Counted from the first letter of the stretch, positions 23,527 to 42,793 are shown. The stretch: DNA of 42,793 nucleotides from a virus (IMGVR_UViG_2667527787_000008); one strand, 5' to 3'. Translations and numbers: made by a program. Notes: a model not told the origin generated them from the letters alone.

Positions 23527-23535
23527 GAGGCTTTC

Positions 23536-23851: not shown

Positions 23852-23876
23852 GGCCGCTACTGCGCGGCCTTTTTAC
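23852..23876 (+). terminator. Putative intrinsic terminator upstream of the scaffold gene
   Basis: Hairpin GGCCGC-TACTGC-GCGGCC followed by TTTTT. Confidence 0.4.
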
Positions 23877-23900
23877 TGCCCGCAATTCAGCAGGTAACCC

Positions 23901-25154: not shown

Positions 25155-25165
25155 GGTAACCAACA

Positions 25166-25684: not shown

Positions 25685-25695
25685 AGGAACGATGA

Positions 25696-26640: not shown

Positions 26641-26677
26641 CCCCTATGGCGGGGCAACCCGCCGTTCTGGAGAGAAC

Positions 26678-27043
26678 ATGAAATATCTCGTTAATACCGG
26701 GACCGTGCTGCGCTTTGCCGATGGTTCGCAGGTAGAACTTACCCCTGGCGTGCACAGCTTCGATAAGCGCGTTACCGAGCACTGGGCTTTTGGTGCGCAT
26801 GCGCAGGCCATCAGTGAAGAAGATCTGAAGCAGAGCCAGGGAGGCGAAGACCTCTCGCTTAAGATCTCGGCGCTGGAATCCACCATCGCCGGCCTGCAGC
26901 AGCAGGTGACGGATAAGGATGTCACTATCGCAGAGCAGTCAGACACCATCGCCGGCCTGCAGCAGCAGCTGGATGATCTGACTGAGAAGCTTGCATCACA
27001 GGAGGCTGGCAATGCCAAAAAACAGCCTTCTGCCAACAAGTGA
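26678..27043 (+). CDS. Hypothetical coiled-coil head-associated protein with internal repeat
   Basis: ATG at 26678 with GGAGA ribosome-binding site; duplicated segment TIAGLQQQ encoded by a 25 bp exact direct repeat. Confidence 0.45.
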   Translation: MKYLVNTGTVLRFADGSQVELTPGVHSFDKRVTEHWAFGAHAQAISEEDLKQSQGGEDLSLKISALESTIAGLQQQVTDKDVTIAEQSDTIAGLQQQLDDLTEKLASQEAGNAKKQPSANK

Positions 27044-27419
27044 TCAATTCCGCACCGACTTTCCTGAGTTTGCCAACACCACCCGCTATCCAGACGCCGC
27101 GGTAAATTTTTACCTCTGCCAGGCTGACGCCATCCTCAATCAGGATGTGCACGGCGACCAGTTCGTTTACCTGGCGGAGCTGTTCACTGCGCATTACGTT
27201 GAGCTGCGTGGTCGCGCGCTGGCGGGCGCCTCTGGCGGCTTTGTCAGTAGCGGTGGCAGCGGCGTAGCGTCGTCGAAGTCTGTCGATAAGGTCAGCGTCA
27301 GCTATGACAACTCGGGCACCATCAACCCTGACGCCGGATTCTGGAATAAAACCGGATACGGCCAGGAGTTCTTCTGGTGGTGGTTGATGTTCGGTGCTGG
27401 CGGGCGGCAACTGTTATGA
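27012..27419 (+). CDS. Putative head-tail connector / head completion protein
   Basis: 135 aa from ATG with GGAGG ribosome-binding site; position between capsid and tail genes. Confidence 0.4.
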   Translation: MPKNSLLPTSDQFRTDFPEFANTTRYPDAAVNFYLCQADAILNQDVHGDQFVYLAELFTAHYVELRGRALAGASGGFVSSGGSGVASSKSVDKVSVSYDNSGTINPDAGFWNKTGYGQEFFWWWLMFGAGGRQLL

Positions 27420-27922
27420 GCGGCGTGAAGGTCAGGGCAGACAATGCCGCATCCGTGCTGGCCGGGCTGGACAGAGTGTCCCGCATGGATGTGCTGGTGG
27501 GCATCCCTGAATCCAACGCTGTGCGTGAGGATGGGGAAGATCTCAACAACGCTGAGATCGCCTATCTGCAATCCACCGGGGCGACGGTCCGGCTCGGTGG
27601 GCAGGAGGTGACCTTGCCGCCGCGCCCGTTCCTGGACATCGGTATTGAGGATTCGGCAAAGGTAACTGCTGAGCACCTCAAGGCGGCCGCAGGTCATGCG
27701 CTCGATGGCAATTTCTCTGGTGCTGAGCGCGAGCTTACCAGCGCAGGTCAGCTGGCATCGGATGCCGCGAAGCGCGTTATTACGGATGGTGATCGGCTGG
27801 CACCAATATCCGATTTCACTATCCAGAAACGCAGAGAGCGCGGGTACGCAGGCATTAAGCCGCTGTATGACCATGGCTATCTGCTTCGCTCGATCACCTT
27901 CGTTGTGAGAGGTAAAAAATAA
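27416..27922 (+). CDS. Putative head-tail joining protein
   Basis: 168 aa; ATGA overlap with the upstream stop. Confidence 0.4.
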   Translation: MSGVKVRADNAASVLAGLDRVSRMDVLVGIPESNAVREDGEDLNNAEIAYLQSTGATVRLGGQEVTLPPRPFLDIGIEDSAKVTAEHLKAAAGHALDGNFSGAERELTSAGQLASDAAKRVITDGDRLAPISDFTIQKRRERGYAGIKPLYDHGYLLRSITFVVRGKK

Positions 27923-28308
27923 TGCCTTTTCTCGATGTCACCGATGTGTTGTCGGATCCTGATTTTTGCGATTACACGCTGGTCTGCATCCGCAACCACC
28001 AGGCGAAGGATGCTGACGGCTTCGTGACCAATACGCCGGAGGATATTCCGTTTAACGGCGTGGTCACCGTCGACCGCTCGCTGGAAGCCCGGCGCATGGC
28101 GGCAGGGCAGGTTATTGGCGGCGCAATCCTGGTGGTTACCACCTTCCGCTTAACGCAGGGCCTGCCCGGTCAGGATGCTGACGTGGTGCTCTACAACGGG
28201 CGGCATTACCGCGTAACGTTTGTGGATCCGTACACCTCATATGGTGCCGGGTTCGTTCAGGCCCACTGTGAGCTGGTGGAGTTTAACGGAGGTACGCCAG
28301 TTGAATGA
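27922..28308 (+). CDS. Putative tail completion/neck protein
   Basis: 128 aa ORF, start overlaps the upstream stop. Confidence 0.4.
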   Translation: MPFLDVTDVLSDPDFCDYTLVCIRNHQAKDADGFVTNTPEDIPFNGVVTVDRSLEARRMAAGQVIGGAILVVTTFRLTQGLPGQDADVVLYNGRHYRVTFVDPYTSYGAGFVQAHCELVEFNGGTPVE

Positions 28309-28843
28309 CACCACACATCCCGGATACCTGACGCCTACCAGCCAGCCGCCGCAGTACGACCAGGCGCTTGAGCGCGAGCTCAGCCGGTGGATTCGCGGTG
28401 TTTCTGGCCTGCCGGATGGCATGGCCATACCACGCTTTACTGACCCTCAGCCAGCGATCCCGGTGCTGGGCACCAACTGGTGCGGGTTTGGTATCACAGA
28501 CTTCCAGGACACAGCCAACCCGGCATCGGTCACCAGGGACGACGACACCGACTACCAGTGGCAATTCGAATCGCTGGTGGTGCTCTGCTGTTTCTACGGC
28601 CCTGCAGGCCAGGCTTACGCCAAAACGTTTCGTAACGGTCTGTTCGTGTCCCAGAACAACGCTGAGCTAAATCGCGTCGGCCTCACGCTCGGCGAGGTGG
28701 GCCGAATCATCCCGGCGCCCGAGCTCGTTAACAACCAGTGGCAGCGTCGCTACGACCTGTCTGTGACGCTACGCCGCAAAACGGTACGCGAGTACGGCAT
28801 CAAATCCATCCTCTCTGCTCCAGTACAATTTTTCGGAGATTAA
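28220..28843 (+). CDS. Putative neck/tail terminator protein (start uncertain; TTG at 28301 with GGAGG ribosome-binding site is an alternative)
   Basis: ORF directly upstream of the sheath gene. Confidence 0.4.
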   Translation: MWIRTPHMVPGSFRPTVSWWSLTEVRQLNDTTHPGYLTPTSQPPQYDQALERELSRWIRGVSGLPDGMAIPRFTDPQPAIPVLGTNWCGFGITDFQDTANPASVTRDDDTDYQWQFESLVVLCCFYGPAGQAYAKTFRNGLFVSQNNAELNRVGLTLGEVGRIIPAPELVNNQWQRRYDLSVTLRRKTVREYGIKSILSAPVQFFGD

Positions 28844-28846
28844 ATC

Positions 28847-30337
28847 ATGCCTAACGGCTTATCTGTATCACGCGTCGTTCGCGTGCAGGTCGCGCTCGCC
28901 GTTCGCGCGGCGGCCGGGCGTAACTTCGGCGCGCTGCTGGTTCTCGGCACCGCCGACGTAATCACTGCCCCGGAAGTGATGCGCCTTTACCAGGATATCG
29001 AAAGTGTCGCCACCGACTTTGGCACTACCGCTGAAGAGTACAAGGCGGCAAACCTTTACTTCCAGCAGTCGCCGCAGCCCCGCGATCTTTATATCGGAAA
29101 ACTGGAACGCGCCTCCAGCCCGGCAACGGCCGGCAAGCTCACTGGTGCTGTACTGACCTCTGCAGAGCAGGCAATCGCAAACTTCACCGCGGTTGACGAT
29201 GGCGCGATTAAGATCTCGGTGGACGGCACTGTTAAAACCGTAACGGGTATCGACCTGTCAGCGGTGACCGATCTGGCCGGAGTAGCGACGGCCATCACTG
29301 CGAAACTTACCGGCACCGCCGTTTCCTACGTGGCCGGCTCGAATCAGTTTGTGGTGACGTCTTCCACTACCGGGGCCACCTCAGCAATTGGTATTCCTGT
29401 TGCTGCCGGCACTGGCACTGACCTGGCGCCGCTGCTGGGCATTGACTCAGCGCATAACCCAACCGTGTCAAACGGCCAGGATGCTTCATCTTCAGTGCTG
29501 CCGTCGGTGAACACAGCGCTGAACTACTCAGCCGACTGGTACGGCCTGGTTATCGCCGATACTGCAATGACGGACCAGGACCATATCGATGTTTCTGCCC
29601 TGATCGGCTCTGCGAGCGATTCCCGGGTGTACGGTGTGACGACTGCGGCGGCCGAGGTCCTGGACTCAACCAGCACCACGGATATTGCCTACAGGCTGAA
29701 AGCCGCCGGTTATGGCCGCACGTTCTGCCAGTACAGCCAGGTGCCTTATGCCGCAGCCTCTGCCTTTGGTCGCGCGTTCACAGTAAATTTCCTGGGTAAC
29801 AACACCACCATTACCCTGAAATTCAAGCAGGAACCGGGCATTACTGCCGAGACGATCACCGCGCAGCAGGCCGATACGCTCAAGGCAAAAAACTGCAACG
29901 TATTTGTGCGCTACGCCAACGATACCGCCATCATCCAGGAAGGCGTGATGTCCAACGGCGATTTCTTCGACGAGCGCCACGGCCTCGACTGGCTGCAGAA
30001 TTACGTCCAGAACAACCTCTGGAACCTGCTTTACACCTCAACCACCAAAATCCCGCAGACCGAAGCGGGCGTGACGCGCCTGGTGACCAATGTCGAACAG
30101 TCGATGGACCAGTCTGTAAACAACGGTCTGGTGGCACCGGGAATCTGGAACGGCGGTGACGTCGGACAGCTGACATCAGGCGATATGCTGACCAAAGGCT
30201 ATTACGTTTACGCGAACCCGCTCAACGCCCAGGCGCAGGCAGATCGTGAAGCGCGTAAGGCGCCGGTGATTCAGGTAGCAACCAAACTGGCGGGGGCTAT
30301 CCACTTCGCTGATGTATTAATCGACGTGGTGCGCTAA
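28847..30337 (+). CDS. Contractile tail sheath protein
   Basis: 496 aa ORF followed by a tube-sized gene, chaperone and tape measure, the canonical myovirus order. Confidence 0.7.
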
Positions 30338-30348
30338 GGGGGCACTGA

Positions 30349-30789
30349 ATGAGCACTTATTCTTTTCTGGATATCACGGGGTCAATGACTGGCCCCACCG
30401 GGGTGATTGACCTCGGCGCCGGTTCTGCCAACTCCGAAGAGGGCATTACCATCGCCATGGTCGAAAACAAAAACACCATGACGATCGGCGCTGACGGCGA
30501 GGGCATGCACTCCCTGCACGCCGGCAAGGCTGGAACGGTAACCGTTAACCTTCTGAAAACCTCGCCGGTGAACAAAAAGCTGTCTCTGGCCTACAACGCG
30601 CAAAGCCAGTCCTCAGCGCTGTGGGGTAATAACGTCTTTGTGTTCCGCAACACTGCATCTGGCGACATCATGACCGCGCGCGGCGGCGCCTTCCAGAAGC
30701 ACCCCGACTGGCAGAACGCCAAAGAGGGCGGGACGGTGGCCTGGGTGTTCGACTGCATCAAAATTGACCCGTTCCTGGGGGAGTATTAA
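30349..30789 (+). CDS. Tail tube protein
   Basis: 146 aa ORF immediately after the sheath gene. Confidence 0.65.
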   Translation: MSTYSFLDITGSMTGPTGVIDLGAGSANSEEGITIAMVENKNTMTIGADGEGMHSLHAGKAGTVTVNLLKTSPVNKKLSLAYNAQSQSSALWGNNVFVFRNTASGDIMTARGGAFQKHPDWQNAKEGGTVAWVFDCIKIDPFLGEY

Positions 30790-30792
30790 TTC

Positions 30793-31218
30793 ATGGAAAT
30801 TACTATCAAGTATCAGCAGTACCGTATCGCTAAGTTAAGCGTTTTCGAACAGCTGAAGGTATCCCGCAAGCTGCTGCCGGTTCTGGCGGGTCTGGTTTCT
30901 GACTTCCGTAACATCCAGACGAAGCTGAATGCCAAAGACACCGAAGGCGCGATGGAAAGTATTCTTCCGAAGATCGCTGGCGCCGTTTCCGGCCTCAGTG
31001 ATGATGATGTGAATGCGATCCTTTTTCCCTGCCTGCAGGTGGTGGCGCGCAAACACTTGAGCGCCTGGGTGCCGGTGTGCCAGCAGGGCACCATGGCCTT
31101 TGACGATATCGACCTGTTCGTGATGCTGCAGCTTGTGGCGCGGGTGGTCGCCGATTCGCTGGGAAATTTTTTGCAAGGACTTCCTACCAGCGAGACGAAC
31201 ACCCAGCCTGCGGAATAA
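30793..31218 (+). CDS. Tail assembly chaperone (G-like)
   Basis: 141 aa ORF between the tube and tape measure genes; slippery heptamer near its 3-prime end. Confidence 0.6.
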   Translation: MEITIKYQQYRIAKLSVFEQLKVSRKLLPVLAGLVSDFRNIQTKLNAKDTEGAMESILPKIAGAVSGLSDDDVNAILFPCLQVVARKHLSAWVPVCQQGTMAFDDIDLFVMLQLVARVVADSLGNFLQGLPTSETNTQPAE

Positions 31219-31406
31219 CCTTTAACACCCTGCCGGGCGGTGAGGATTACATCCTTCGCCCGGCGCTCGCCTTCAACCTCGATCAGAAAGACCTCGACAG
31301 CGGTGCAGTGGACCTGTGCCGCATCGCGCTGCTTAACGATTACCTCGATATGCGTGACGATAACGACGCGCGCGTAGCCAAATGGAGAGCCCAGAACAAT
31401 GGCTGA
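30793..31406 (+). CDS. Tail assembly chaperone frameshift fusion (GT-like), made by a programmed -1 frameshift at about 31161-31167
   Basis: The -1 frame is open from the slippery site G_GGA_AAT to a TGA at about 31404-31406 and encodes about 80 protein-like residues overlapping the tape measure start. Confidence 0.45.
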
Positions 31407-33378
31407 TACTATCCGTGATTACCTGGTCTCTCTGGGGTTCGATATCGACGGCGCGGGCCAGGCGAAGTTTGAAGCCACGCTCAAAGGTGTGGCCGCGAAC
31501 GTCGTAAAACTGGGGGCCATAGTTGAGTCGACGGGGCTGGCCATTGTGGGCTTCACCGCCTCGATCGCCAGCGGCCTTGATAAACTCTACTGGGCCGCGG
31601 AACGCACCGGGGCATCGGTCAACGGCATCAAGGCGCTTGGCTATGCTGCCTCACAAACCGGCTCCAGCGCCGAGGCTGCCCAGAACTCACTGGAGAGCCT
31701 GGCGCGCTTCATGCGCAGCAATCCCGGCGCCGAAGGCTTCCTGAACCGCCTGGGGGTGCAGACCCGGGACGCTTCCGGACAGATGCGCGACATGTCGGCT
31801 ATCTTCACCGGCGTCGGCCAGCGCCTCAGCAGCATGCCCTATTATCGAGCCAATCAGTTCGCGCAGATGCTGGGCATTGACGAAAACACGCTGATGGCAA
31901 TGCGGCGAGGAATGTCCGGCTTCACGGCTGAATACCAGTCGATGATGCAGAAGACAGGCTTCGATGCTGACAGGGCCGCGCAGCAGTCCAACAAGTTCAT
32001 GACCTCAATGCGCAACTTCGTTTCGCTACTGGGGATCTTGCGCGATAAGGTTGGCTCGAATCTGGCCGGCGGCCTGAGCGGCACGCTGAACAATCTCAGC
32101 AAGCAGATGCTGGAGAACTGGCCGAAGATAGAGGGCGTGGTCACGAAGATAGTGAAGGGGGTGCTCTTTGCTGCTGATGTCATTACCCAGATGGCGTGGC
32201 GCGTCTCGCAGGCGGTAGGCGGCCTGATTGAGTGGTTTAAAAAGCTGCCGCCGGATATACAGCAGCTAATCATGCTGGTGTCCGGGCTGGTTTCGGCGTG
32301 GCAGCTGCTTAACGCTGAGTTCCTCAAATCGCCGATAGGTATCGTAATCGCGCTAGGCTCGGCGCTGTTCGCGCTTTACGACGACTACAAAACCTGGAAA
32401 GAAGGCGGTCAAAGCCTGCTGCCCTGGGATAAATGGGAGCCAGAAATAGAGGCTGCCCTGAAATCGCTTGGCGAGCTGCGGGATTCTGTGAAGGCGATAG
32501 GGGTTGAAATCGCAAAGCTGCTCAATATCAACCTCAAAAACTGGACCCTTAAAGGCGACATCGACAACCTCACTAAGCAGTTCGGTGAGTTTGGCAAGAT
32601 GATTAAGATGATTGGCGACCTGATAAACGCCATCAACGAGGGGCGTTGGAAAGATGCTTATGCGATCGGCAAGAACCTGCTGGCACAAGGGCAAGGCCAG
32701 GATGCTCTACCTGCAGTATCTGACAGCGCTAACAATACTGCTGACTGGATAGAGGGCAAGACGGGGTTCGACCCGCGAAGCATCGGGAAAACAATAAACG
32801 GGTGGATTTTCGGCAAAGAAGAGGGCGGCTCAGACCAGCAGGAGAGCGGCCCGGGCAAGACGCTGGCCGACCGTAACAACAATCCTGGCAACCTGCGCCC
32901 CGTCGGCGGCACCGGTTTTACCTCTCATCAGACGCCGCTTGATGGTTGGATGGCAATGGCCAGGCAGATCCGTCTTTATTTCACCGGAAAAAGCGCGGCC
33001 GCCGGGTATGAAAAACTCCAGTCAATATGGGACATCATCCACAAATACGCACCTGCCAGCGACAACAACGACCCCGAGGCCTATTCGAACTTCGTAGCCA
33101 ATATGATGGGCGTGGGCGCTAAGGACACGCTGAACCTGAGCGACCCGCAGCAGTTCAGCAACCTTCTGCAGGCCATGTCCAGGAAGGAAGGTTACGGTCA
33201 GTGGAATTCCCCATTGGCCAGCGTTGCCGCTACGCAGGCAGCCGCGCAGATCAGCCAGGAAACGAACATCAATATTTACGGCGCGAGCGACCCGGCATCC
33301 ACTGGCCGGGAGGTTGCCGATCGTCAATCCGGCGTTAATTCCCGTCTTACTCAGCAGCTACAACCGAGGGTCTACTGA
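31399..33378 (+). CDS. Tail tape measure protein
   Basis: 659 aa, Ala/Gly/Gln-rich with long predicted helices; follows the chaperone pair. Confidence 0.75.
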   Translation: MADTIRDYLVSLGFDIDGAGQAKFEATLKGVAANVVKLGAIVESTGLAIVGFTASIASGLDKLYWAAERTGASVNGIKALGYAASQTGSSAEAAQNSLESLARFMRSNPGAEGFLNRLGVQTRDASGQMRDMSAIFTGVGQRLSSMPYYRANQFAQMLGIDENTLMAMRRGMSGFTAEYQSMMQKTGFDADRAAQQSNKFMTSMRNFVSLLGILRDKVGSNLAGGLSGTLNNLSKQMLENWPKIEGVVTKIVKGVLFAADVITQMAWRVSQAVGGLIEWFKKLPPDIQQLIMLVSGLVSAWQLLNAEFLKSPIGIVIALGSALFALYDDYKTWKEGGQSLLPWDKWEPEIEAALKSLGELRDSVKAIGVEIAKLLNINLKNWTLKGDIDNLTKQFGEFGKMIKMIGDLINAINEGRWKDAYAIGKNLLAQGQGQDALPAVSDSANNTADWIEGKTGFDPRSIGKTINGWIFGKEEGGSDQQESGPGKTLADRNNNPGNLRPVGGTGFTSHQTPLDGWMAMARQIRLYFTGKSAAAGYEKLQSIWDIIHKYAPASDNNDPEAYSNFVANMMGVGAKDTLNLSDPQQFSNLLQAMSRKEGYGQWNSPLASVAATQAAAQISQETNINIYGASDPASTGREVADRQSGVNSRLTQQLQPRVY

Positions 33379-33953
33379 TGGATATTTTATCGGTCATCTT
33401 CCGGCTGCAGTCTCGGAAAATAGGTATTTTTGTACCTGACGTGGTGGTGTCGGAGAAGCATGTTGATGCCCTGGAAATCACTGAACATCCGGTGGAGTTT
33501 GGCGCCGCCATAAACGACCACGCCTATAAGCGCGCCAGCGAGGTCACTATGGAGTGCGGGTTTGCCGGCGGCGGGTCGGTACTCGACCTGGTAAATCTGT
33601 CCAGCATAGGCTTGCGGGTTGGCGAGAGCCCAAGGGAGATTTATCAGCAGTTGCTGGATCTGCAGAAATCCCGGGTGCCGTTTGATGTTGTTACCGGCAA
33701 GCGCACCTACAGCAATATGCTGATACGCGCTATCGAGGCCACGACGGACCGAACCAGCGAAAATGTGCTGTCATGCGTTCTGACGCTGCGGGAAGTGATC
33801 ATGTCGGATACGCAGAGCATCACTGTTACGGATAAGGCCAACATGCAGGAGGGAGTCAGCACCGCGCCAGTACAGAATACAGGGATGAAATCTCTGGTGC
33901 CGACCAGCAGCTCATCTGTAATTCAAAAGATAGCCGATTTTGCGAGGGGATAA
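33378..33953 (+). CDS. Putative tail/baseplate protein
   Basis: 191 aa ORF, start overlaps the tape measure stop. Confidence 0.45.
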   Translation: MDILSVIFRLQSRKIGIFVPDVVVSEKHVDALEITEHPVEFGAAINDHAYKRASEVTMECGFAGGGSVLDLVNLSSIGLRVGESPREIYQQLLDLQKSRVPFDVVTGKRTYSNMLIRAIEATTDRTSENVLSCVLTLREVIMSDTQSITVTDKANMQEGVSTAPVQNTGMKSLVPTSSSSVIQKIADFARG

Positions 33954-34258
33954 TGAGCGTTAATGAGATTCCGATGATCCCTGATAACCAGGAGTTTCGC
34001 ATCACCCTGGGCGACATAAGCTACACGCTCCGCGTGCTATGGCGCGACGATGCTGGCTGGATAATGGACGTTATGGATAGCGGCGCGCAGCCTCTGTTAA
34101 TGGGCGTCCCCCTGGTGCCGGGGGTTAACCTTTTGGCTCAGTATCCGGATCTGGGGATATCTGGCGCACTGGTGGTCATGACAGACAACGGAGCCCCTGA
34201 ATACCCGACGAAAACAAACCTTGGTGCCTCGAGCCATCTTTATTTTGTTCAGGAATAG
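33953..34258 (+). CDS. Putative tail/baseplate protein
   Basis: 101 aa ORF, ATGA overlap with the upstream gene. Confidence 0.4.
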   Translation: MSVNEIPMIPDNQEFRITLGDISYTLRVLWRDDAGWIMDVMDSGAQPLLMGVPLVPGVNLLAQYPDLGISGALVVMTDNGAPEYPTKTNLGASSHLYFVQE

Positions 34259-34261
34259 CCC

Positions 34262-35332
34262 ATGACTATTAACTGGAATCGCCATTTTGAACTGCGGCTT
34301 CTGAACGACAAGGGGAATGGCATATCCCTGTCGGACTTTAAAGTTACCTTCGCAATCGACTGGTTTAACTCGATGTGGCCACGTGTGGCGACGCTTAAAA
34401 TTTACAACCTCAAGCGTGACACAATCACCCGGATTACGGGGGATGAGTTTTCTCGCATTACCATCATAGCCGGTTATAACGGCCTGGCGCCGACGGTTAC
34501 TGAAAGCGAGGTTGGGCAGGTTACCGAGATTTCATCTGAGCAAACCGGCCAGACGCGCGGGCAAAATTACGGAGTCATTTTTGATGGGGAGATTCGTTTT
34601 ACGATAACCGGGCGCGATAATCCTACCGATATTTTTACGCTAATTCAGTCGGTAGATGGTCATAAGGCGTTCAACGAAGCCGTATCGTCCGGCAGCCTGG
34701 CGGCAGGATATAAGCTTGCCGACGTGCATACACTTCTGATGAAGGACTTTTCGCCTTACGGCATCACCCAGGGCATCACCGGGCAGTTCCCTGACAGGGT
34801 GATGCCACGCGGTCGCGTCTTCTTCGGCGCAACGCGCGACTACATGAGCAACCTAGCGGCGCAGTGCGAGGCTAACTGGCAATTTGTCGACGGCCAGCTG
34901 CAAATGGTGCCTGAGAATAAATATCTCCATGAAGCGATCGTGCTTAACACCAAAACTGGCCTGGTCGGTATGCCTCAGCAAACCATGGGGGCAGGCGTTA
35001 ATGTGCGCTGTCTCATTAATCCAAACATTCGGGTTAACGGGCTTATTCAGTTGAACCAGGACTCGGTGTATCGCTCGCAATTACCGAACGATGAGATCCA
35101 AAGATCACAGGCAAGGATTACTGAGGCAAATGATAATGGTAATCTTAGTACAGGCAGCGCGACGCTTGCGCAGCCCGCCAGTGTGGCAACTGATGGCGTT
35201 TACATAGTTCAGTCAATCAGCTACACCGGCGATACGAGAGGGAATCCGTGGTATATGGATCTCATGTGTATGGCCAGAGGGGCGCGTGATTTACAATCGA
35301 ATACGGCCCTACAGCGAACGGCTCCACAATGA
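34262..35332 (+). CDS. Putative baseplate hub protein
   Basis: 356 aa ORF upstream of the spike and baseplate genes (Mu P-like position). Confidence 0.5.
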   Translation: MTINWNRHFELRLLNDKGNGISLSDFKVTFAIDWFNSMWPRVATLKIYNLKRDTITRITGDEFSRITIIAGYNGLAPTVTESEVGQVTEISSEQTGQTRGQNYGVIFDGEIRFTITGRDNPTDIFTLIQSVDGHKAFNEAVSSGSLAAGYKLADVHTLLMKDFSPYGITQGITGQFPDRVMPRGRVFFGATRDYMSNLAAQCEANWQFVDGQLQMVPENKYLHEAIVLNTKTGLVGMPQQTMGAGVNVRCLINPNIRVNGLIQLNQDSVYRSQLPNDEIQRSQARITEANDNGNLSTGSATLAQPASVATDGVYIVQSISYTGDTRGNPWYMDLMCMARGARDLQSNTALQRTAPQ

Positions 35333-35685
35333 AAAAAATACTTTTTTTGGTTTCTTTAGCATTCGTCAGTTTTTCTTCTACAGCGGCAAACACCGCTTAT
35401 ATGAAGTGTGGTCCCTTTACTTTCTCAACCTCATCAAGCAACGACGGATATCCGAGGATAAACGGAGCAAAGCCTGATAGTCAGAAGGTGACATTCCTCA
35501 AAAAAGAGGGAGATTATGACAATATTAAAATGCAATGGATTGTCATGAATGAGAATTCTGGGCAGCGCTATGGTCTTGATTATATAAAACGCAATGGGAG
35601 AGGGATACTCAATGCCGAGGCCATCAGAATGAACATGAATGAACCTCGAGTGTTTGGAACTTACGACTGCGTGAAGGCTAAGTAA
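35329..35685 (+). CDS. Secreted small protein (signal peptide, 2 Cys), low-GC moron coupled to the baseplate hub gene
   Basis: ATGA overlap with the hub stop; MKKILFLVSLAFVSFSSTAA signal peptide; AT-rich relative to flanks. Confidence 0.55.
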   Translation: MKKILFLVSLAFVSFSSTAANTAYMKCGPFTFSTSSSNDGYPRINGAKPDSQKVTFLKKEGDYDNIKMQWIVMNENSGQRYGLDYIKRNGRGILNAEAIRMNMNEPRVFGTYDCVKAK

Positions 35686-35692
35686 TTTAATA

Positions 35693-35712
35693 AAGGCGCC
35701 GGAACTACCGGC
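35693..35712. terminator. Hairpin between convergent moron genes (putative bidirectional terminator)
   Basis: GCGCCGG-AACTAC-CGGCGC stem-loop; U-rich on the minus-strand side. Confidence 0.35.
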
Positions 35713-35718
35713 GCTCAG

Positions 35719-36069
35719 TTACTCGTCTTTAAAACTTATAATTTTGTACTGCTCCAGTACTTCTGAAAGCTCCTTTGATGTCAGATTTTGTATTTCGATC
35801 GTACCTTTTTCAGTGGTTACCGTTATTTTTTTTGATGATCTGGTCTGTAACCATTTTCTCGCTATCGATGCAATGGCGATACAAGCTGGTGATGATGTGA
35901 TAACGGTAATAGATATTTCGAGAATTGTGCCAATAGCGCCAGGAGAATCACCCGTTCTGACTCTTTTACTTACTACATAGTCATTAGCGGGTATGTTATC
36001 CTGGATTACAGGAAGTAACTCTTTCCAAATAGCTGGAGTAAATTTTATGGTTGTTTCTGATTTTGGCAT
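35719..36069 (-). CDS. Hypothetical antisense moron protein (116 aa) inside the baseplate operon
   Basis: ATG at 36069; AT-rich; convergent with the secreted-protein gene; no recognisable family. Confidence 0.45.
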   Translation of the reverse strand: MPKSETTIKFTPAIWKELLPVIQDNIPANDYVVSKRVRTGDSPGAIGTILEISITVITSSPACIAIASIARKWLQTRSSKKITVTTEKGTIEIQNLTSKELSEVLEQYKIISFKDE

Positions 36070-36249
36070 AAAGGTTTCAGGCCCCTATCGAGAGAAGCTA
36101 AAAATTGCCTACCGGCTTTTCCTTAGCAGCCTGTATCTTGCTACAAATCACGACGTTACCGTGGTTCTAAGCAAAACCTATATTAAGAGCTGCAATGAAG
36201 ATAAATAGCACGCATTAACTCACCCTCAAATCCTGACATTTGATCAGTA

Positions 36250-36272
36250 ACCCGCCTCGGCGGGTTTTTTAT
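36250..36272 (+). terminator. Rho-independent terminator just upstream of the baseplate spike gene
   Basis: AACCCGCC-TCG-GCGGGTT followed by TTTTTATT. Confidence 0.45.
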
Positions 36273-36287
36273 TACCTGGAGAAAGCT

Positions 36288-36941
36288 ATGCCAGTATCAG
36301 CCCGCGCGCAGGACGGCAACGAATCGCAGACTCTTGAGGCGCACCGCCACGCCATTTTCGGCAGCCTGCGCGTGGCTTTGCCGGGGATCATCCAGTCCTT
36401 TGACCCTGAAACAGTGACATGCACCGTGCAGCCAGCCATCTACGGTCAGCGGCTCAGCGACGATGGCGCTCTGGTTTCTGAGGAGATACCGATTTTGCCA
36501 GACGTTCCAGTGGTGTTCCCCCGCGGCGGTGGCTGCACGTTAACCTTCCCGGTAAAGGCCGGTGACGAGTGCCTCCTGGTCTTCTCCGATCGCTGCATCG
36601 ACTTCTGGTGGCAGAGCGGCGGGGTGCAGGAACCGGTTGACCCGCGCCAGCATGACCTGAGTGATGCGTTTGCCATTGTGGGTCCGCAGTCGCAGGCGCA
36701 GAAAATCAGCAGCATCAGTACCAGTGCGGTTGAACTGCGCAGTGACGACGGTGGAACAAAACTGAGCCTTAACCCTTCATCCGGAGCGATAACGGGAACC
36801 GCGCCGGGAGGCTTCAACCTTAACGGTCTGAAAATTCTGCCTGACGGCCGCCTGCAGCTGGTGGATGGCTCCATGGTTGATAAGCATACGCATGGCGGCG
36901 TGGAAGTCGGCGGCAGCAATACGAAACCACTGGGAGGGTAA
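36288..36941 (+). CDS. Baseplate spike / assembly protein V-like
   Basis: 217 aa from ATG with GGAGA ribosome-binding site; C-terminal HTHGGVEVGGSNT-type motif; followed by W-like and J-like genes. Confidence 0.55.
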   Translation: MPVSARAQDGNESQTLEAHRHAIFGSLRVALPGIIQSFDPETVTCTVQPAIYGQRLSDDGALVSEEIPILPDVPVVFPRGGGCTLTFPVKAGDECLLVFSDRCIDFWWQSGGVQEPVDPRQHDLSDAFAIVGPQSQAQKISSISTSAVELRSDDGGTKLSLNPSSGAITGTAPGGFNLNGLKILPDGRLQLVDGSMVDKHTHGGVEVGGSNTKPLGG

Positions 36942-36943
36942 TT

Positions 36944-37297
36944 ATGCGATACCGACGCGAAGACGACGACGGGGACTACACCTTCGGCCAGGGCGATGAC
37001 ACCTTTCTGGTCAACTCACCCGAGTGCGTGGCCCAGGCCGTTAAAACGCGCTTTGAACTGTGGAAGGGGCAATGGTTTCTGGACACAACCGAGGGCACAC
37101 CCTATATCCAGTCGGTTCTGGGAAAGCAAAGGCCTGAGGTTTATAACCTTGCGATCAGGGATCGCATCAGCACCACACCTGGCGTTCTGTCCATACTGGC
37201 CTTTGATACCGTGAATGAAAGCACGACACGCCGGGTAACGTTCACAGCCACCATAAACACTATCTACGGACAAACCACCCTTACCAGCGAGGCATAA
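36944..37297 (+). CDS. Baseplate protein W/gp25-like
   Basis: 117 aa ORF in canonical position between the V-like and J-like genes. Confidence 0.55.
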   Translation: MRYRREDDDGDYTFGQGDDTFLVNSPECVAQAVKTRFELWKGQWFLDTTEGTPYIQSVLGKQRPEVYNLAIRDRISTTPGVLSILAFDTVNESTTRRVTFTATINTIYGQTTLTSEA

Positions 37298-38497
37298 ATG
37301 GCCCTCAATTTGGACACGCTCGGCTTATCGGCAACGGTAACCGCTGAGGGGATCAGCGCGCCTGATTACCAGACAATACTGGACACCCTGACCAACTACT
37401 TTAAGCAGATATATGGCAGCGATGCTTATCTGGATCCTGACAGCAAAGACGGGCAGATGGTGGCGCTGGTGGCCCTGGCTATTCACGATGCTAACAACAC
37501 GGCCATTGCTGTTTACAACAGCTTTTCGCCTGCCACCGCTTATGGCGCAGGGCTGAGCAAGAACGTGAAAATAAACGGTATTAAAAGGAGAACGGCTACC
37601 AACTCAACGGTTGATTTGCTGCTTACCGGCGCGGCCGGTACGACCATTTCGAATGGCTCCGTCAGGGATAAGAATGGCCTGGTCTGGAGCATGCCGGCTT
37701 CCGTGGTAATTGGTTTAGACGGGACGGCGACGGTCACTGCCACCTGCTCAAATAGCGGCGCAGTGGCCGCGCTGTCCGGAACGGTCACGACCATTAACAC
37801 ACCGACCCGCGGCTGGACTTCGGTAACTAACCCCGCGGCGGCCACCGTCGGATCCCCGGCGGAAACCGACGCAGAGCTGCGCATCCGGCAGGGGCAGAGT
37901 GTCGCGCTACCCTCCATCACGCCGTTTGAAGGGGTGGACGGCGCGATAGTGAACGTTGCAGGGGTTACACGTCACAAGCTCTACGAGAATGATACCGGCA
38001 CGACCGACAGTAATGGGCTGCCGCCACACTCTATCTCTGCCATCGTGGATGGCGGCGATCTGACTGAAATCGCCCAGGCCATCCGGGGCAATAAGGGGCA
38101 GGGGGTGTCAACGTATGGTGCGACAGCCGTCACGGTGCCGGATAAATACGGTAATCCCCATGTGATTCGCTTCTCCCGGTCAACGGATGTTCCTATTTAT
38201 GGACATATAACGCTGAAAGCTTTCGCGGGTTACACATCACAAATAGGTAAGGAGATTCAGCAGGCCGTTGCGGATTACATCAACGACCTGACGATCGGTG
38301 ATTCGGTGCTGCTGAGCCGCATTTATTCACCTGCCAACCTCGGGGTGGTCAGCGGCGGTAGCGCGCGTTATTACGACATCCAGGAATTACTCATCGGTAA
38401 ATCAGCAGGATCCGTAGCATCGGCAAACATAACCATAGCCTACGACGAATCAGCTTCATGTAAACCGGCAAACATCGTTATCACGGTGACGTCATGA
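37298..38497 (+). CDS. Baseplate J-like protein
   Basis: 399 aa ORF upstream of the tail-fibre genes (position of e14 jayE and Mu gp47). Confidence 0.65.
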   Translation: MALNLDTLGLSATVTAEGISAPDYQTILDTLTNYFKQIYGSDAYLDPDSKDGQMVALVALAIHDANNTAIAVYNSFSPATAYGAGLSKNVKINGIKRRTATNSTVDLLLTGAAGTTISNGSVRDKNGLVWSMPASVVIGLDGTATVTATCSNSGAVAALSGTVTTINTPTRGWTSVTNPAAATVGSPAETDAELRIRQGQSVALPSITPFEGVDGAIVNVAGVTRHKLYENDTGTTDSNGLPPHSISAIVDGGDLTEIAQAIRGNKGQGVSTYGATAVTVPDKYGNPHVIRFSRSTDVPIYGHITLKAFAGYTSQIGKEIQQAVADYINDLTIGDSVLLSRIYSPANLGVVSGGSARYYDIQELLIGKSAGSVASANITIAYDESASCKPANIVITVTS

Positions 38498-39174
38498 GTA
38501 GGTACACGGATCTAATCACTAACTACCACGCCACTAAGCCGAAATACCTCGATCACATCGATCTTAGTACCCGTCCCCTGATTGATATCACGTCAGCCAC
38601 AAGGGGCCTGGTGAGTGCGTTTGACATTGATACGGCTGTTGGCGTGCAACTCGATATTCTCGGACTCTGGATTGGACGTAGCCGTATAGTCAGCCAGCCC
38701 ATTAGTGGCGTTTATTTCAGTTGGGACACGGAGGGGCTCGGATATGACCAGGGCGTATGGCAGGGGCCATATGATCCTGACTCCGGCTATACGACGCTTA
38801 GCGATGATACCTATCGCACTATTCTGAAAGCAAAAATCGCTATTAACAACTGGGACGGGCGTAACGACTCGCTTCCGGACATTCTTGACACTGCCACAGT
38901 GGGTTCGGGCCTGAAGATGCAGATCGTCGACAATCAGGACATGACGATATCGGTCTGGGTATTTCCCGAGACTGATATTTCTGATGTGTCTCTCGAACTG
39001 ATCGCCGCTATCAAACAGGGCTATCTCACCGTTAAAGCCGCTGGCGTCTGGGCCGGTGATGTTGAAATGCCTTCGGTTGAAACACCGTCCGAAGGAACAA
39101 AATTCTTTGGATTTGACATGGATAACGAATACATCGCCGGTTTTGATGACGGCGCATGGGGGAGATTACTTTAA
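38494..39174 (+). CDS. Baseplate/tail protein (I-like, position of e14 ymfQ)
   Basis: 226 aa ORF, overlaps the upstream stop; precedes the tail fibre. Confidence 0.5.
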   Translation: MSRYTDLITNYHATKPKYLDHIDLSTRPLIDITSATRGLVSAFDIDTAVGVQLDILGLWIGRSRIVSQPISGVYFSWDTEGLGYDQGVWQGPYDPDSGYTTLSDDTYRTILKAKIAINNWDGRNDSLPDILDTATVGSGLKMQIVDNQDMTISVWVFPETDISDVSLELIAAIKQGYLTVKAAGVWAGDVEMPSVETPSEGTKFFGFDMDNEYIAGFDDGAWGRLL

Positions 39175-39953
39175 TGGCTGGAACTAATGATTTTAAAGCG
39201 TTTGCGACAGATGCTAATGCAAATGTTACCTCGCAGGAGGAATGGGAGACGCTAACCGCACTGAAGAAAGGATTCTCCTCGGGTAAAGCATCCAGCGCAC
39301 AGGTCAGTAAAGCGCTGCGCCAACCGTCGACGATGGCGGCTGTACTGGGGCAGTTTATCGCGAACGCCGAACTGGACGCGCTCGATGATGGTGACGTTGA
39401 TGGACTGGTGGCAAAGCTGGCGACAGCGATTACCACAAACCTTGGTTTGGGAGAAGGCTCAGCATTACCCGTTGGCGTACCTGTTCCGTGGCCTTCAGCC
39501 ACACCGCCGACAGGCTGGCTGAAATGCAACGGTGCCGCTTTTTCTGCTGAAGAATACCCGGAACTGGCAAAGGCTTACCCGACAAATAAATTGCCTGATT
39601 TACGTGGTGAGTTTATTCGTGGCTGGGATGACGGGCGTGGAGTGGATAGCGGTCGTACTTTATTAACGAATCAAGAGCATGCAGTAATTTCTCATAATCA
39701 TGGAATACCTACAAAAGTGGGGTCAGTTACTAATATCCCGTATGGAATAGAACAGGTTATATCTGATGAAACCATTTTTTCATCAGCAAAAACAGTTGGT
39801 GTGGATTACTGGTCTAACAGTGAAAGAGTTTTTACTTATACCTCTGGTGGAAGAAATGGTGCTGAATCAGTGAGTTCACCTGATGCCTCCTCTTTAATTA
39901 AAGAAACCAGACCACGGAACCTAGCATTTGCGTATATCGTGAGGGCTGCATAA
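39174..39953 (+). CDS. Tail fibre protein (constant N-terminus plus currently expressed variable C-terminus, Sv)
   Basis: GWLKCNGAAFSAEEYPELAKAYPTNKLPDLRGEFIRGWDDGRG tail-collar-type motif; inversion crossover site at codon about 96; AT-rich 3-prime part. Confidence 0.7.
   Translation: MAGTNDFKAFATDANANVTSQEEWETLTALKKGFSSGKASSAQVSKALRQPSTMAAVLGQFIANAELDALDDGDVDGLVAKLATAITTNLGLGEGSALPVGVPVPWPSATPPTGWLKCNGAAFSAEEYPELAKAYPTNKLPDLRGEFIRGWDDGRGVDSGRTLLTNQEHAVISHNHGIPTKVGSVTNIPYGIEQVISDETIFSSAKTVGVDYWSNSERVFTYTSGGRNGAESVSSPDASSLIKETRPRNLAFAYIVRAA
39432..39457. other. Left crossover site of the invertible tail-fibre segment (gix/hix-like)
   Basis: ACCACAAACC-TT-GGTTTGGGAGAA; inner half-site repeated in inverted orientation at the right site. 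Confidence 0.5.
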
Positions 39954-40555
39954 TGGTGAAAGCAAAATTAAACAGTGCGTTTATTGCCACCGTGGCAGGT
40001 GAAATCACTGTGTACAACTACCGGGGCGACACCCGCGAATACATATCCTCATCGGTTGAGTATCTGCCTGTGGGGGTGGGTATTCCTGCCAATTCCTGTA
40101 CCGATGCGCCCGGCACACATAAAGCTGGTTATGCAATCTGCCGTTCTGCAGATTTTAACTCATGGGAATATGTGCCAGACCATCGCGGTGAAACGGTATA
40201 TAGCACTGAAACAGGAGAATCAAAAGAAATCACAGCTCCGGGTGATTACTCTGAAAATACAACTACTATCGCCCCGTTAACGCCATTCGATAAATGGGAT
40301 GGTGAGAAATGGGTGACCGATACTGAGGCACAGCATAGCGCCGCAGTAGACGTGGCAGAAGCACAGCGCCAGTCGCTGATTGATGCTGCTATGGCTTCCA
40401 TCAGTCTGATTCAGCTGAAATTGCAGGCCGGGCGGCAACTGACGCAAGCAGAAATCACTCGCCTTAACGCTGTGCTGGATTACATTGACACGGTGACGGC
40501 AACAGATACCAGCACCGCGCCGGATGTCATCTGGCCTGAACTGCCGGAGGCGTAG
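39953..40555 (+). CDS. Tail fibre assembly protein (Tfa)
   Basis: 200 aa; C-terminal motif LNAVLDYIDTVTATDTSTAPDVIWPELP typical of the tail fibre assembly family. Confidence 0.7.
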   Translation: MVKAKLNSAFIATVAGEITVYNYRGDTREYISSSVEYLPVGVGIPANSCTDAPGTHKAGYAICRSADFNSWEYVPDHRGETVYSTETGESKEITAPGDYSENTTTIAPLTPFDKWDGEKWVTDTEAQHSAAVDVAEAQRQSLIDAAMASISLIQLKLQAGRQLTQAEITRLNAVLDYIDTVTATDTSTAPDVIWPELPEA

Positions 40556-40970
40556 GCCATTCAATATCTGGAGCACTGGAGGTATCAACCAGTTCCAGTG
40601 CGTCCAGATAATCCAGCCACAAATTATATTGCGCCAGTTCCTCACTTTTCAGACGACCAATCGCCGCTTTGCCAGGCCACTGATGAGTATTGATGTAGGT
40701 ATTGACTTCAGAAACCAAAGATATTTTTTTCATTTCAGCCGTCAACACCTCATCCTCTTTTGAAGGGGGTGGGGAATTAATCCATACTGGCCGTCCTGAA
40801 CTGTCAGCGCCAATTTCTTTCCCTTCTGGATGCAGCCCAAGAAATTGCTCATATGTTTCTCTGGTAATTTCAATAACATCATCAGGAAGCGTTCCCGCAT
40901 CCTCATATTCTGGAAACAATTCTTGCAGATAAAAACTTTTACTTCCGGGTGAAAAGAATACTGAGTTCAT
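40527..40970 (-). CDS. Alternative tail fibre assembly protein (Tfa-prime) within the invertible segment
   Basis: 147 aa; C-terminal LWLDYLDALELVDTSSAPDIEWPTPP paralogous to Tfa; convergent with and overlapping tfa. Confidence 0.65.
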   Translation of the reverse strand: MNSVFFSPGSKSFYLQELFPEYEDAGTLPDDVIEITRETYEQFLGLHPEGKEIGADSSGRPVWINSPPPSKEDEVLTAEMKKISLVSEVNTYINTHQWPGKAAIGRLKSEELAQYNLWLDYLDALELVDTSSAPDIEWPTPPAVQAR

Positions 40971-40972
40971 TC

Positions 40973-41425
40973 TTACCGTCCAATGATTAATGCTGAGACG
41001 CTGGTATCTGAAGGAAAGGCTGCATTCAGTGGTTTGTCGACTTTGAACACAATCGTATTATTCCCCCTGACAGCGGCAAAAGAACAAACCGCAGTCGCGT
41101 ATGAACCTGTAATATTACTGGATACACCACCATAAGCTGTTGTTGATACCAGAGGGATAACGCCCAGCACCTTATTAGGAAATACAAAGGGCAATGTGGC
41201 TGTGGCAATATAAGACTTATTAGAACCTGTAATGGCATAAGCATTATCAGTCATTCCATTCATCGCCACCGGGCCGCTTATACTTACAGTAACCATCTGA
41301 ATGATTAGCCCGTCAGGTTGACGAATCACAAAATTTCCATTGCCACCAGTAACCGTCCAGAAAGACATATCAGGGATTTGGTTTTCCCCGTTGCCCACAT
41401 TCCGTTTTGCCGCTTCTCCCAAACC
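40973..41425 (-). CDS. Promoterless alternative tail-fibre C-terminal segment (Sv-prime)
   Basis: Begins with GLGE encoded by GGTTTGGGAGAA, the same as the current junction in the expressed fibre; Gly/Thr/Ser-rich fibre-like composition. Confidence 0.6.
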   Translation of the reverse strand, partial: GLGEAAKRNVGNGENQIPDMSFWTVTGGNGNFVIRQPDGLIIQMVTVSISGPVAMNGMTDNAYAITGSNKSYIATATLPFVFPNKVLGVIPLVSTTAYGGVSSNITGSYATAVCSFAAVRGNNTIVFKVDKPLNAAFPSDTSVSALIIGR

Positions 41426-41439
41426 AACCTTTTTTATAA
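41414..41439. other. Right crossover site of the invertible segment (gix/hix-like)
   Basis: TTCTCCCAAACC-AA-CCTTTTTTATAA resembles Hin/Gin crossover sites; about 60 bp upstream of the invertase start. Confidence 0.5.
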
Positions 41440-41498
41440 CCATCAAAAATCTGGTGATGCTTCGCCGTTTCTCCTGTTTTCATAACAGGAGAAATCCC

Positions 41499-42047
41499 AT
41501 GATTTACGGTTATGCCCGAGTATCAACAAACCACCAGGACACTGAATTGCAACTAACGGCGCTCAAGTCAGCGGGTTGTGAGAAAATTTTTGAAGAGCAT
41601 GCCAGCGGGAGGAAATCGAATCGGCCGGTTCTAAAACGGCTGATCGCCACTATGCAGCCGGGGGATGAACTGGTGGTCTGGAAGCTGGACAGGATAGGCC
41701 GCAACGTTCTGCATGCGCTGTTGATGTTCCAGCAGTTACAGGAAAAGGGTATCAACTTCCGCAGTATTACCGATGGCGTGGATCTCAAAACAGCCAGCGG
41801 CCGCTATAACTTTCGTAACATCCTTTCCGCAGCACAATATGAATCTGATCTTAATAGCGAACGTACCTTAGCAGGGCTGGCCGTAGCCAGGGCAAAAGGG
41901 CGAGTTGGTGGTCGCAGGCCTAAGTTCACGGATGAGCAATGGCGGGAAATGGGGGAGCGGATGGCAACCGGTGAATCACGACAAAGCGTATCAAAAACGT
42001 ATGGAGTAGGGCTCTCAACTCTGTATAAAAAGTTTCCAGCTAGCTGA
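41499..42047 (+). CDS. Serine DNA invertase (Pin/Gin/Hin/Cin family)
   Basis: 182 aa MIYGYARVSTNHQDTELQLTALKSAGCEKIFEEHASG... with catalytic Ser in YARVST and C-terminal HTH; adjacent to the invertible segment. Confidence 0.85.
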   Translation: MIYGYARVSTNHQDTELQLTALKSAGCEKIFEEHASGRKSNRPVLKRLIATMQPGDELVVWKLDRIGRNVLHALLMFQQLQEKGINFRSITDGVDLKTASGRYNFRNILSAAQYESDLNSERTLAGLAVARAKGRVGGRRPKFTDEQWREMGERMATGESRQSVSKTYGVGLSTLYKKFPAS

Positions 42048-42067
42048 TAACGGGAAAGAAACAGAGA

Positions 42068-42105
42068 AGGGCACAAATATTGTGTACTTTAATGTGCCCT
42101 TTAAT
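42068..42105. terminator. Putative bidirectional terminator between invertase and yciI; probable prophage right boundary region
   Basis: Stem AGGGCACA / TGTGCCCT with long loop, T-rich on both sides. Confidence 0.3.
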
Positions 42106-42165
42106 TTATTGATTGGTGGTTGAATTGTCCGTAACTTTTTGATTTAAGTGCAAATTTCTAATAAA

Positions 42166-42462
42166 TTAGAACGCTTTCTTAAATGGTTTCACTGAAACGT
42201 GTTCATAGACTCCTGCCGCTACGTACGGGTCAGCATCGGCCCAGGCCTGAGCTGCTTCCAGCGATTCAAATTCAGCAATAACGGTTGAGCCAGTAAATCC
42301 CGCAGCCCCTGGATCGTTACTGTCTACCGCTGGCATTGGACCAGCTGTCAACAAACGACCTTCATCATGCAGTAACTGTAAACGTGCTAAATGTGCCGGA
42401 CGAACGGAAAGGCGTTTTTCGAGGCTATCAGCTTTGTCTTGAGCGTAAATAACATACAACAC
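42166..42462 (-). CDS. yciI: YciI-like protein (chromosomal)
   Basis: About 98 aa from GTG with AGGAG ribosome-binding site; adjacent to and divergent from tonB as in E. coli. Confidence 0.6.
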
Positions 42463-42604
42463 GGGCACAACTCCTTGTTCGGGAAAGTTGTAAAGTACGT
42501 TATTTGAAAGGGCGAAGATCTGCAACGGAAAGATGATGTCTTTGTTAAGGCCATGCATAAAGTAAGGGTAATTACGCCAAAAATGACATTTTCACTGATC
42601 CTGA

Positions 42605-42650
42605 TCGTCTTGCCTTATTGAATATGATTGCTATTTGCATTTAAAATCGA
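42605..42650 (+). promoter_or_regulatory. tonB promoter region with Fur-box-like sequence
   Basis: TTGAATATGATTGCTATTTGCATTTAAAATCGAGA upstream of the tonB start, AT-rich iron-box-like repeats. Confidence 0.4.
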
Positions 42651-42685
42651 GACCTGGTTTTTCTACTGAAATGATTATGACTTCA

Positions 42686-42793
42686 ATGACCCTTGATTTA
42701 CCTCGCCGCTTCCCCTGGCCGACGTTACTTTCGGTCTGCATTCATGGTGCTGTTGTGGCGGGTCTGCTCTATACCTCGGTACATCAGGTTATT
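42686..42793 (+). CDS. tonB: TonB, N-terminal fragment (truncated by the window end)
   Basis: Translation MTLDLPRRFPWPTLLSVCIHGAVVAGLLYTSVHQVI matches the TonB N-terminal anchor. Confidence 0.85.
   Translation, partial: MTLDLPRRFPWPTLLSVCIHGAVVAGLLYTSVHQVI

Follow-up and report, generated by a model that had tools for sequence, protein, structure and literature searches.

An AT-rich, putative distal-tip module nested in a predicted invertible tail-fibre cassette of a SEN34-like prophage

It is textbook knowledge that unrelated phages exchange segments of their fibre ends (P2 H/G, Mu S/U, P1, and lambda stf), and the trading of modules by recombination is a well-known route to a change of host range. 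The classical evidence that fibre segments move horizontally among unrelated phages is said to be that of Haggard-Ljungquist et al. in 1992 and Sandmeier in 1994. Chimeric fibres exploit this segmental exchange of fibre ends (PMC9942202).

Two groups of described systems are close to the locus reported here. The first comprises the invertible segments of Mu (G, inverted by Gin), P1 (C, Cin), and e14 (P, Pin), in which a serine invertase adjoins a segment of about 2 kb with 26-bp inverted sites. The left site lies within the fibre gene, and a constant N-terminus is joined to one of two C-terminal ends, each with its own chaperone. The locus that we analyzed, at the end of a 42,793-nucleotide stretch of viral DNA (IMGVR_UViG_2667527787_000008, hereafter the window), shares this plan. 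Unlike Mu, P1, and e14, its backbone is that of a SEN34-like myovirus prophage at yciI-tonB, its invertase is nearest to those of lambdoid phages (phi80 pinL and HK225), and the constant part of its fibre is very short, at about 90 aa.

The second group consists of collar-type fibre tips. In T4 gp37, the collar domain D10 is made of residues 811-881 and 1010-1026, and D11 (882-1009) is inserted within it; D11 is elongated and forms the distal end of the fibre with its tip (PMC6957217). The collar of gp12 has been described as well (PMC3004832), and tips of this type bind metal ions on the fibre axis through HxH motifs (PMC10579305). The window fibre resembles gp37 (2XGF) and gp12 (1OCY/1H6W) in having a collar that is split by a predicted distal insertion, in the alignment of its C-terminal strand (..N(I/L)AF.YIVR..), and in the HxH motif at the start of the insertion (PMC6957217). 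It differs from gp37 in that the insert has 88 aa against 128 aa for D11 and one HxH motif against several, and the insert has no sequence similarity to gp37 D11 or the gp12 head. Unlike T4, the window encodes a chaperone of the Caudo_TAP class (lambda Tfa / Mu U type) rather than gp38 or gp57A. HK97 Stf, P2 gpH, and their relatives share with the window the collar (90-94% nucleotide identity) and the chaperone (86-88%), with a non-homologous insert between them; unlike HK97, the window has an invertible segment, and its tip type was found in none of 50,697 deposited phage records at either the DNA or the protein level. Finally, the short tail fibre of Pectobacterium phage phiTE (9CUY) is the best PDB sequence match across the whole variable (Sv) part of the window fibre, collar and C-terminal strand included (query 8-168, E 2.8e-16; PMC11972413). 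The phiTE insert differs in being of the "AIRNITG" class without HxH, and similarity inside the insert is negligible.

We consider it very probable that the AT-rich stretch near the end of the window's fibre gene is the hypervariable distal-tip module of a collar-type fibre, exchangeable both alone and within the invertible segment.

Layout of the fibre locus and its collar-type tip

The features of the locus are collected in Table 1. The fibre gene matches the PHROG family tail fibre / tail collar fibre (E 6e-73). Translation probably starts at the ATG at 39174, not 39156, where this start codon and the stop codon of the DUF2612 baseplate gene overlap in TAATG; in relatives, the annotated start is likewise an ATG overlapping the DUF2612 stop codon. 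The constant part (Sc), up to about 39441, is backbone-specific, and homology to other phages begins only at 39434-39439. The chaperone gene U lies immediately 3' of the fibre gene, its ATG overlapping the fibre stop codon. The match of the alternative fibre end, Sv', to Pfam Gp53-like_C (E 4.3e-5) is slightly under the curated cut-off. The invertase is the final prophage gene ahead of yciI; its N-terminal motif YARVST holds the catalytic Ser, and the gene has 93-99.8% nucleotide identity to the invertase genes of phi80 (pinL), mEp237, and HK225. The prophage ends right after this gene, beside yciI (42166-42462, minus strand) and tonB (region 42047-42793), and in other E. coli strains this site holds related SEN34-like prophages whose fibre cassettes differ. 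No Rfam match was found in 38500-42793, promoter- and terminator-like sites were not above shuffled expectation and none fell within the AT-rich block, and no alternative ORF of at least 45 aa overlapping the block was found.

Table 1. Features of the tail-fibre locus in window coordinates
Feature	Coordinates	Strand	Details
Tail-fibre gene, expressed orientation	39174..39953	+	259 aa from ATG 39174; ORF open from 39156
Left crossover site	39430..39455	.	TTACCACAAACC TT GGTTTGGGAGAA; within fibre gene, encodes ..TNLGLGE..; inverted repeat, 12+2+12 layout
Collar domain, conserved N-terminal half	39456..39635	+	GSALPVGVPVPWP...GEFIRGWDDG; GC about 0.54; Pfam PF07484 Collar, E 1.6e-15
AT-rich hypervariable insert	39636..39899	+	Delimited by composition and mosaic breakpoints; opens with HxH motif (SHNH)
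Conserved C-terminal strand and stop codon	39900..39953	+	ETRPRNLAFAYIVRAA; second half of collar domain; kept in all relatives
Tail-fibre assembly chaperone (U-like) of expressed fibre	39953..40555	+	Pfam Caudo_TAP (PF02413), E 5.5e-32
Alternative tail-fibre assembly chaperone (U')	40527..40970	-	Pfam Caudo_TAP, E 2.7e-28
Alternative fibre C-terminal part (Sv')	40973..about 41427-41446	-	gp53-like C-terminal domain; GC 0.44; phrog_12714
Right crossover site	41414..41439	.	TTCTCCCAAACC AA CCTTTTTTATAA; inverted repeat; breakpoints of whole-segment exchange
Serine DNA invertase (Pin/Gin/Cin/Hin type)	41490..42047	+	185 aa; Pfam Resolvase E 3.8e-39, HTH_7 E 1.5e-9

The two 26-bp crossover sites share the 12-nt half-site TTCTCCCAAACC in inverted orientation, their central dinucleotides (TT and AA) are complementary, and together they bound a segment of 1984 bp that carries Sv-U on the plus strand and Sv'-U' on the minus strand. 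The half-site probably matches the pix sites. When inversion was simulated, Sc was fused in frame to Sv' to give an intact 240-aa fibre; both orientations are therefore in frame. With an invertase, inverted crossover sites, and two in-frame Sv-chaperone ends, the locus has at the sequence level what defines a Gin/Cin/Pin-type switch, and we predict that it is an invertible tail-fibre switch of that type. The simulated flipped junction of this backbone and cassette was found in none of the 5426 complete E. coli genomes, but neither was the combination itself, which is unique to the window; in other backbones, the same cassette is found in both orientations relative to the constant part. About 195 nt separate the left crossover site from the AT-rich block downstream of it. 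The preliminary description had regarded tip variation as adding to the variability of the invertible segment. This does not hold: the block lies inside the segment (39430-39455 to 41414-41439) and belongs to one of its switchable ends. The insert would thus be nested in a Pin/Gin-type segment that provides a second, unrelated fibre end (Sv') with a chaperone of its own.

What would the AT-rich block be in the folded fibre? The collar profile PF07484 scores 57.2 bits on the variable part against a cut-off of 24, and the fibre matches T4 gp37 (PDB 2XGF) at E 1.3e-14, through the N-terminal half of the collar, and gp12 (1OCY) at E 3.7e-4. The gp37 match comes in two pieces: chain residues 27-103 pair with the conserved block that precedes the GC drop, and residues 226-241 with the last 16 residues of the fibre. 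This second piece, KETRPRNLAFAYIVRA, aligns to the C-termini of both gp37 (chain 226-241) and gp12, which read TENTVKNIAFNYIVRL and ETRPWNISLNYIIK, respectively; the match of the strand to gp37 is weak alone (independent E-value 2.4e3), and the motif is invariant in the family alignment. If gp37 residue 1026 is the last of the 242 residues of the 2XGF chain, as we assume, the aligned pieces fall on the two halves of D10. Because the conserved flanks align to these two halves, the block at 39636-39899 is probably the positional equivalent of the distal excursion formed by gp37 D11. The SHNH at the start of the insert, its single HxH motif, aligns with AHSH of gp37; HxH occurs at this position in 12 of 22 insert types that we compared (described below), the others having AIRNI(T/I)G or similar. 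Neither a PDB comparison nor a phage tblastn search nor an exhaustive HMMER search related the insert itself to any characterised domain.

By homology, the chain would build the first half of the collar (39456-39635), exit the collar to form a distal, receptor-contacting excursion (39636-39899) that opens with the HxH motif, and return through the short conserved C-terminal strand (39900-39950) to complete the collar. The preliminary description had called the C-terminal region receptor-binding. For the AT-rich block, the D11-like position and the homology of its flanks to gp37 and gp12 make this a reasonable reading.

Compared with the copy in an IME392-like phage (L012), dN/dS is 0.17 over the aligned block and 0.32 in its core. 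Since the ORF is intact and the differences from the L012 copy are mainly synonymous, the block is a functional coding module. A reading of the block as a pseudogene or a product of decay was rejected on the same two grounds, the intact ORF and the dN/dS of 0.17-0.32.

Composition of the fibre-gene end

The preliminary description stated that roughly the last 100 codons of the fibre gene are AT-rich relative to the tail module, and quantitative analysis of GC content and codon usage bears this out. The GC content of 39640-39953 is 0.395 (39.5%), compared with 0.533 upstream in the same ORF (39156-39639), 0.560 (56.0%) across the structural region (19465-39155), and 0.559 in the tail and baseplate genes. 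By codon position, GC falls from 0.60/0.51/0.48 upstream to 0.47/0.49/0.24 within 39640-39953, so the drop is mainly one of third positions; the GC3 of 0.24 compares with 0.63-0.67 in the baseplate genes. Equally AT-rich 314-nt windows make up just 0.6% of those across 19465-39155. A two-segment maximum-likelihood scan placed the change-point in the fibre gene at 39656 (LLR 8.87), a value reached by 0.14% of 5000 codon-order shuffles (p 0.0014). The deviant block could be narrowed to about 39636-39899, a stretch of 264 nt or 88 codons with a GC of 0.386 and a GC3 of about 0.20. The last 54 nt (39900-39953) are the conserved C-terminal motif (GC 0.46). The entire invertible segment (39443-41426), at a GC of 0.467, is already under the backbone.

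Could the drop be a chance fluctuation, or a by-product of an odd amino-acid composition, and so carry no evolutionary meaning? The block is short (about 300 nt) and rich in Ser, Thr, Ile, and Asn, as such an explanation would have it. However, back-translation of 39642-39899 with the codon usage of the tail module gave a GC of 0.548 +/- 0.017, against 0.380 observed (z = -9.9), and 0 of 5000 simulations were as low. Since the same residues recoded in this way give 0.548, amino-acid composition is not the cause of the drop; the signal lies in nucleotide and codon usage. Against chance there is also the rarity of the change-point among codon shuffles, and the break matches homology breakpoints in six independent comparisons. 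We regard this explanation as having next to no chance of being correct, and it was ruled out on the recoding test, the change-point shuffles, and the comparison with the L010 prophage described in the next section.

The window contains other low-GC islands. In a whole-window list, equally AT-rich 314-nt windows fell, besides the fibre end, in only two islands, at 19.1-19.5 kb and 35.5-36.2 kb. Islands with a GC of 0.40-0.44 lie at 6500-7600 and 11000-13600, in the early/regulatory part, and at 19100-19500, the first of these two, just upstream of the structural module. The island at 35300-36200 is sharp (about 0.40 against 0.56) and interrupts the tail module between a baseplate-hub-like gene (34262-35332) and the spike gene (36240-36941). 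It contains two small ORFs, one at 35329-35685 (plus strand, 118 aa) with a hydrophobic, signal-like N-terminus and a match to phrog_3443, and one at 35719-36069 (minus strand, 116 aa) with a match to Pfam EACC1 (Effector Associated Constant Component 1; E 1.1e-6). Judged from these matches, the island looks like a moron, possibly one related to conflict or defence.

Exchange of the cassette and of the insert within it

The clearest trace of transfer concerns the segment as a whole. From 39436 to about 41430, the window is ~100% identical to two P2-like prophages (L001 and L015), and identity with them drops to 47-67% just outside the segment, invertase gene included. Conversely, a prophage with the same backbone (L009), whose flanks are 99.9% identical to those of the window, is wholly different in its invertible segment, the breakpoints at 39454 and 41405 falling on the crossover sites. 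The full fibre gene of the window, Sc joined to this Sv, was found in 0 of 5426 E. coli genomes, all matches beginning at 39434-39439. Because the segment is shared at ~100% identity and the identity collapses at the crossover sites, the latest visible event is one in which the 2-kb cassette passed whole from one backbone to another, unrelated one. The segment has moved as a unit, with breakpoints at the 26-bp crossover sites.

The invertase and the segment that it adjoins are evolutionarily uncoupled. The window invertase is lambdoid-like (phi80 pinL, mEp237, and HK225), and the invertase region of the P2-like prophage L001 (7866-8432) is only 47-67% identical to it despite the ~100% identity of the segments.

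Within the cassette, a second and smaller unit of exchange can be recognized. The prophage L010 has the SEN34-like backbone of the window and lies at the same yciI-tonB site; the two are 96.8% identical up to 39648 and 95.6% identical from 39900, and L010 differs only in the AT-rich block, which is replaced. HK97 stf, pro483, p13P477T-2, and a P2 relative (P2-T22) are 79-94% identical to the window from 39434-39436 to 39640-39676, and unrelated to it over the block, with homology resuming at 39899-39900 (at 40004 in HK97); in the N-terminal half of the collar, HK97 stf, pro483, and p13P477T-2 reach 90-94% nucleotide identity. In a pair of virulent 116-kb IME392-like myophages (L012 and L013), the breaks fall at the equivalents of 39659 and 39902. 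L012, a metagenomic contig, bears a copy of the block with 89.5% nucleotide and 87% amino-acid identity. Nucleotide alignments across the junctions show that conservation stops at about 39635 and resumes at about 39900. The GC break thus coincides with what these alignments mark as a recombination breakpoint, and the AT-rich block marks an older boundary, nested in the 2-kb cassette that was transferred.

On both sides of the insert, the nucleotide sequence is conserved in many phages, and homologous recombination can therefore swap the insert alone; the L010 comparison shows that such a swap has occurred. The tip has also recombined independently of its right-hand neighbour, because in two e14-like copies (L002 and L007) the tip is 98-100% identical to that of the window, against only ~70% identity over the first ~200 nt of the chaperone gene. 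On the chaperone side, the N-terminus of U (39934-40134, ~60 codons) does not strictly co-vary with the tip insert, L010 having a different tip.

The preliminary description had proposed a recent horizontal exchange of the ~100-codon host-specificity domain. Exchange is upheld by the breakpoints in L010, HK97, pro483, p13P477T-2, P2-T22, and L012/L013. Recency is not, as the latest visible transfer is that of the whole 2-kb segment and low GC is no marker of recency.

Sharing of tips was also seen elsewhere in the IME392-like phages. L012 (notably at 8829-9464) and L013 have several collar-type fibre genes, and another of their tip types (SLQDDSFEAHRHESFF...) is common to many temperate prophage fibres (L018, L021, and others). 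The presence of this tip in virulent and temperate phages is therefore a second case of tip sharing across lifestyles.

Distribution of the tip and origin of its composition

The tip type is rare. Of 5426 complete E. coli genomes, 48 carry the block at >=95% identity, and the same tip occurs in SEN34-like (the window), P2-like, and e14-like contexts, on one IncY P1-like plasmid, and in an IME392-like virulent phage. A word-indexed protein search with the 86-aa insert returned two partial E. coli proteins only. Of the four close clusters found by exhaustive HMMER (87-99% identity), three have E. coli names and the fourth is the IME392-like coliphage fibre. Two other HMMER hits, P0007 (IPT/TIG-like repeats) and P0008 (Calx-beta-like), were set aside as repeat or compositional artefacts, with 5 and 10 matched stretches. 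Against phages, tblastn gave no true match, a Pseudomonas phage hit being dismissed at E 0.3, and distant blastn matched only the conserved last 58 nt. In the searches made, the block thus appears to be known only from phages of E. coli and Shigella.

Why is the tip AT-rich? One explanation is that the block was imported recently and directly from a low-GC donor, either another genus or a T-even-like phage, and that its composition has yet to ameliorate. The deficit does lie at the codon level (GC3 0.20-0.24), and the only diverged homologue is the one in the virulent IME392-like myophage, whose fibre region has 43.5% GC. Even in this phage, the lone lower-GC context, the block (0.37) is still below its own gene (0.43). 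Moreover, the search of 1.84 billion representative proteins with HMMER yielded only the four close clusters apart from the two spurious hits, and a scan of 185,579 species representatives found the block only in Shigella flexneri, with none in the phage records. A check of the C-terminal domain alone, for which the preliminary description had anticipated a donor lineage, likewise found no low-GC donor but only phages of E. coli and Shigella.

A comparison of tips argues further against such a donor. We collected 95 collar-type fibre ends from the loci compared, including the 80 best IMG/VR matches; clustering of their inserts at an amino-acid identity of 60% gave 22 types. In this sample, which consists mostly of enterobacterial prophages with near-identical collar blocks and in which the collar side of the comparison is not independent, the GC of the insert was below that of its own collar block in 22 of 22 types (mean 0.441 against 0.524; Wilcoxon p 2.4e-7). 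The GC3 of the insert was below that of the collar in 17 types and above it in five. The window type is the most extreme of the 22 (GC 0.374, GC3 0.20). Within the enterobacterial-biased sample, low GC is a class property of exchangeable tips. Because AT-richness is common to all 22 exchangeable insert types, low GC cannot date the acquisition of any one of them, and for 22 unrelated types to share one bias through import would need many separate low-GC donors. We consider recent direct import from such a donor quite improbable. On the reading that we prefer, that of a hypervariable tip module that is exchanged, low GC is a synonymous-codon signature travelling with the module among coliphages, both temperate (50-56% GC) and virulent (~43% GC). 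Candidate causes of the bias are a low-GC pool of cassettes held in common, AT-biased mutation in segments that evolve fast, and selection on codons.

A further possibility concerns the cause of the bias and is compatible with modular exchange: AT-richness may be made or kept in place in hypervariable tips, through AT-biased mutation combined with weak codon selection or through selection for AT-rich or slow codons, for example slow codons that pace a chaperone-assisted trimer folding that starts at the C-terminus. The recurrence of the bias in every insert type, with a third-position deficit in 17, fits this idea, as does the fact that the block is under purifying selection and not decaying. 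The collar block and other genes of the cassette are below backbone GC as well. On the other hand, copies of the tip in different backbones are 98-100% identical, with no rapid evolution in place to be seen at that time scale, and the five types whose insert GC3 exceeds that of the collar run counter to it. We hold an origin in place to be possible, if somewhat doubtful. A stronger form of the idea seems unlikely to us, namely that AT-richness is a general selected or mutation-driven property of D11-like inserts, or of a shared pool, and not a passive donor signature. In its favour, the bias runs through all 22 types, in temperate as in virulent coliphages, and the two breakpoints are the same every time. 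In its versions, slow codons could pace folding, or a low-GC pool of cassettes could be kept in virulent phages and sampled by prophages. If either were true, the window tip, which has only four clusters among the 1.84 billion representatives, would count as an orphan domain for receptor binding, and its specificity would be new.

What does the exchangeable tip module mean for phage host recognition? The case is one of ordinary tail-fibre modularity with an uncharacterised tip type, and the current view of tail-fibre evolution is unchanged by it. What is new is the rare, uncharacterised tip type itself (about 1% of complete E. coli genomes), its nucleotide-precise junctions, which virulent phages have in common with temperate ones, and the bias in composition across the family. 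The junctions are fixed, with GEFIRGWDDG on the left and ETRPRN..YIVRAA on the right, and are natural splice points for the engineering of fibre chimeras. The cassette is portable among SEN34-like, P2-like, e14-like, and P1-like elements and a virulent myophage. Altogether, an 88-codon tip within a 2-kb invertible cassette offers a clean example of nested modularity in phage host recognition.
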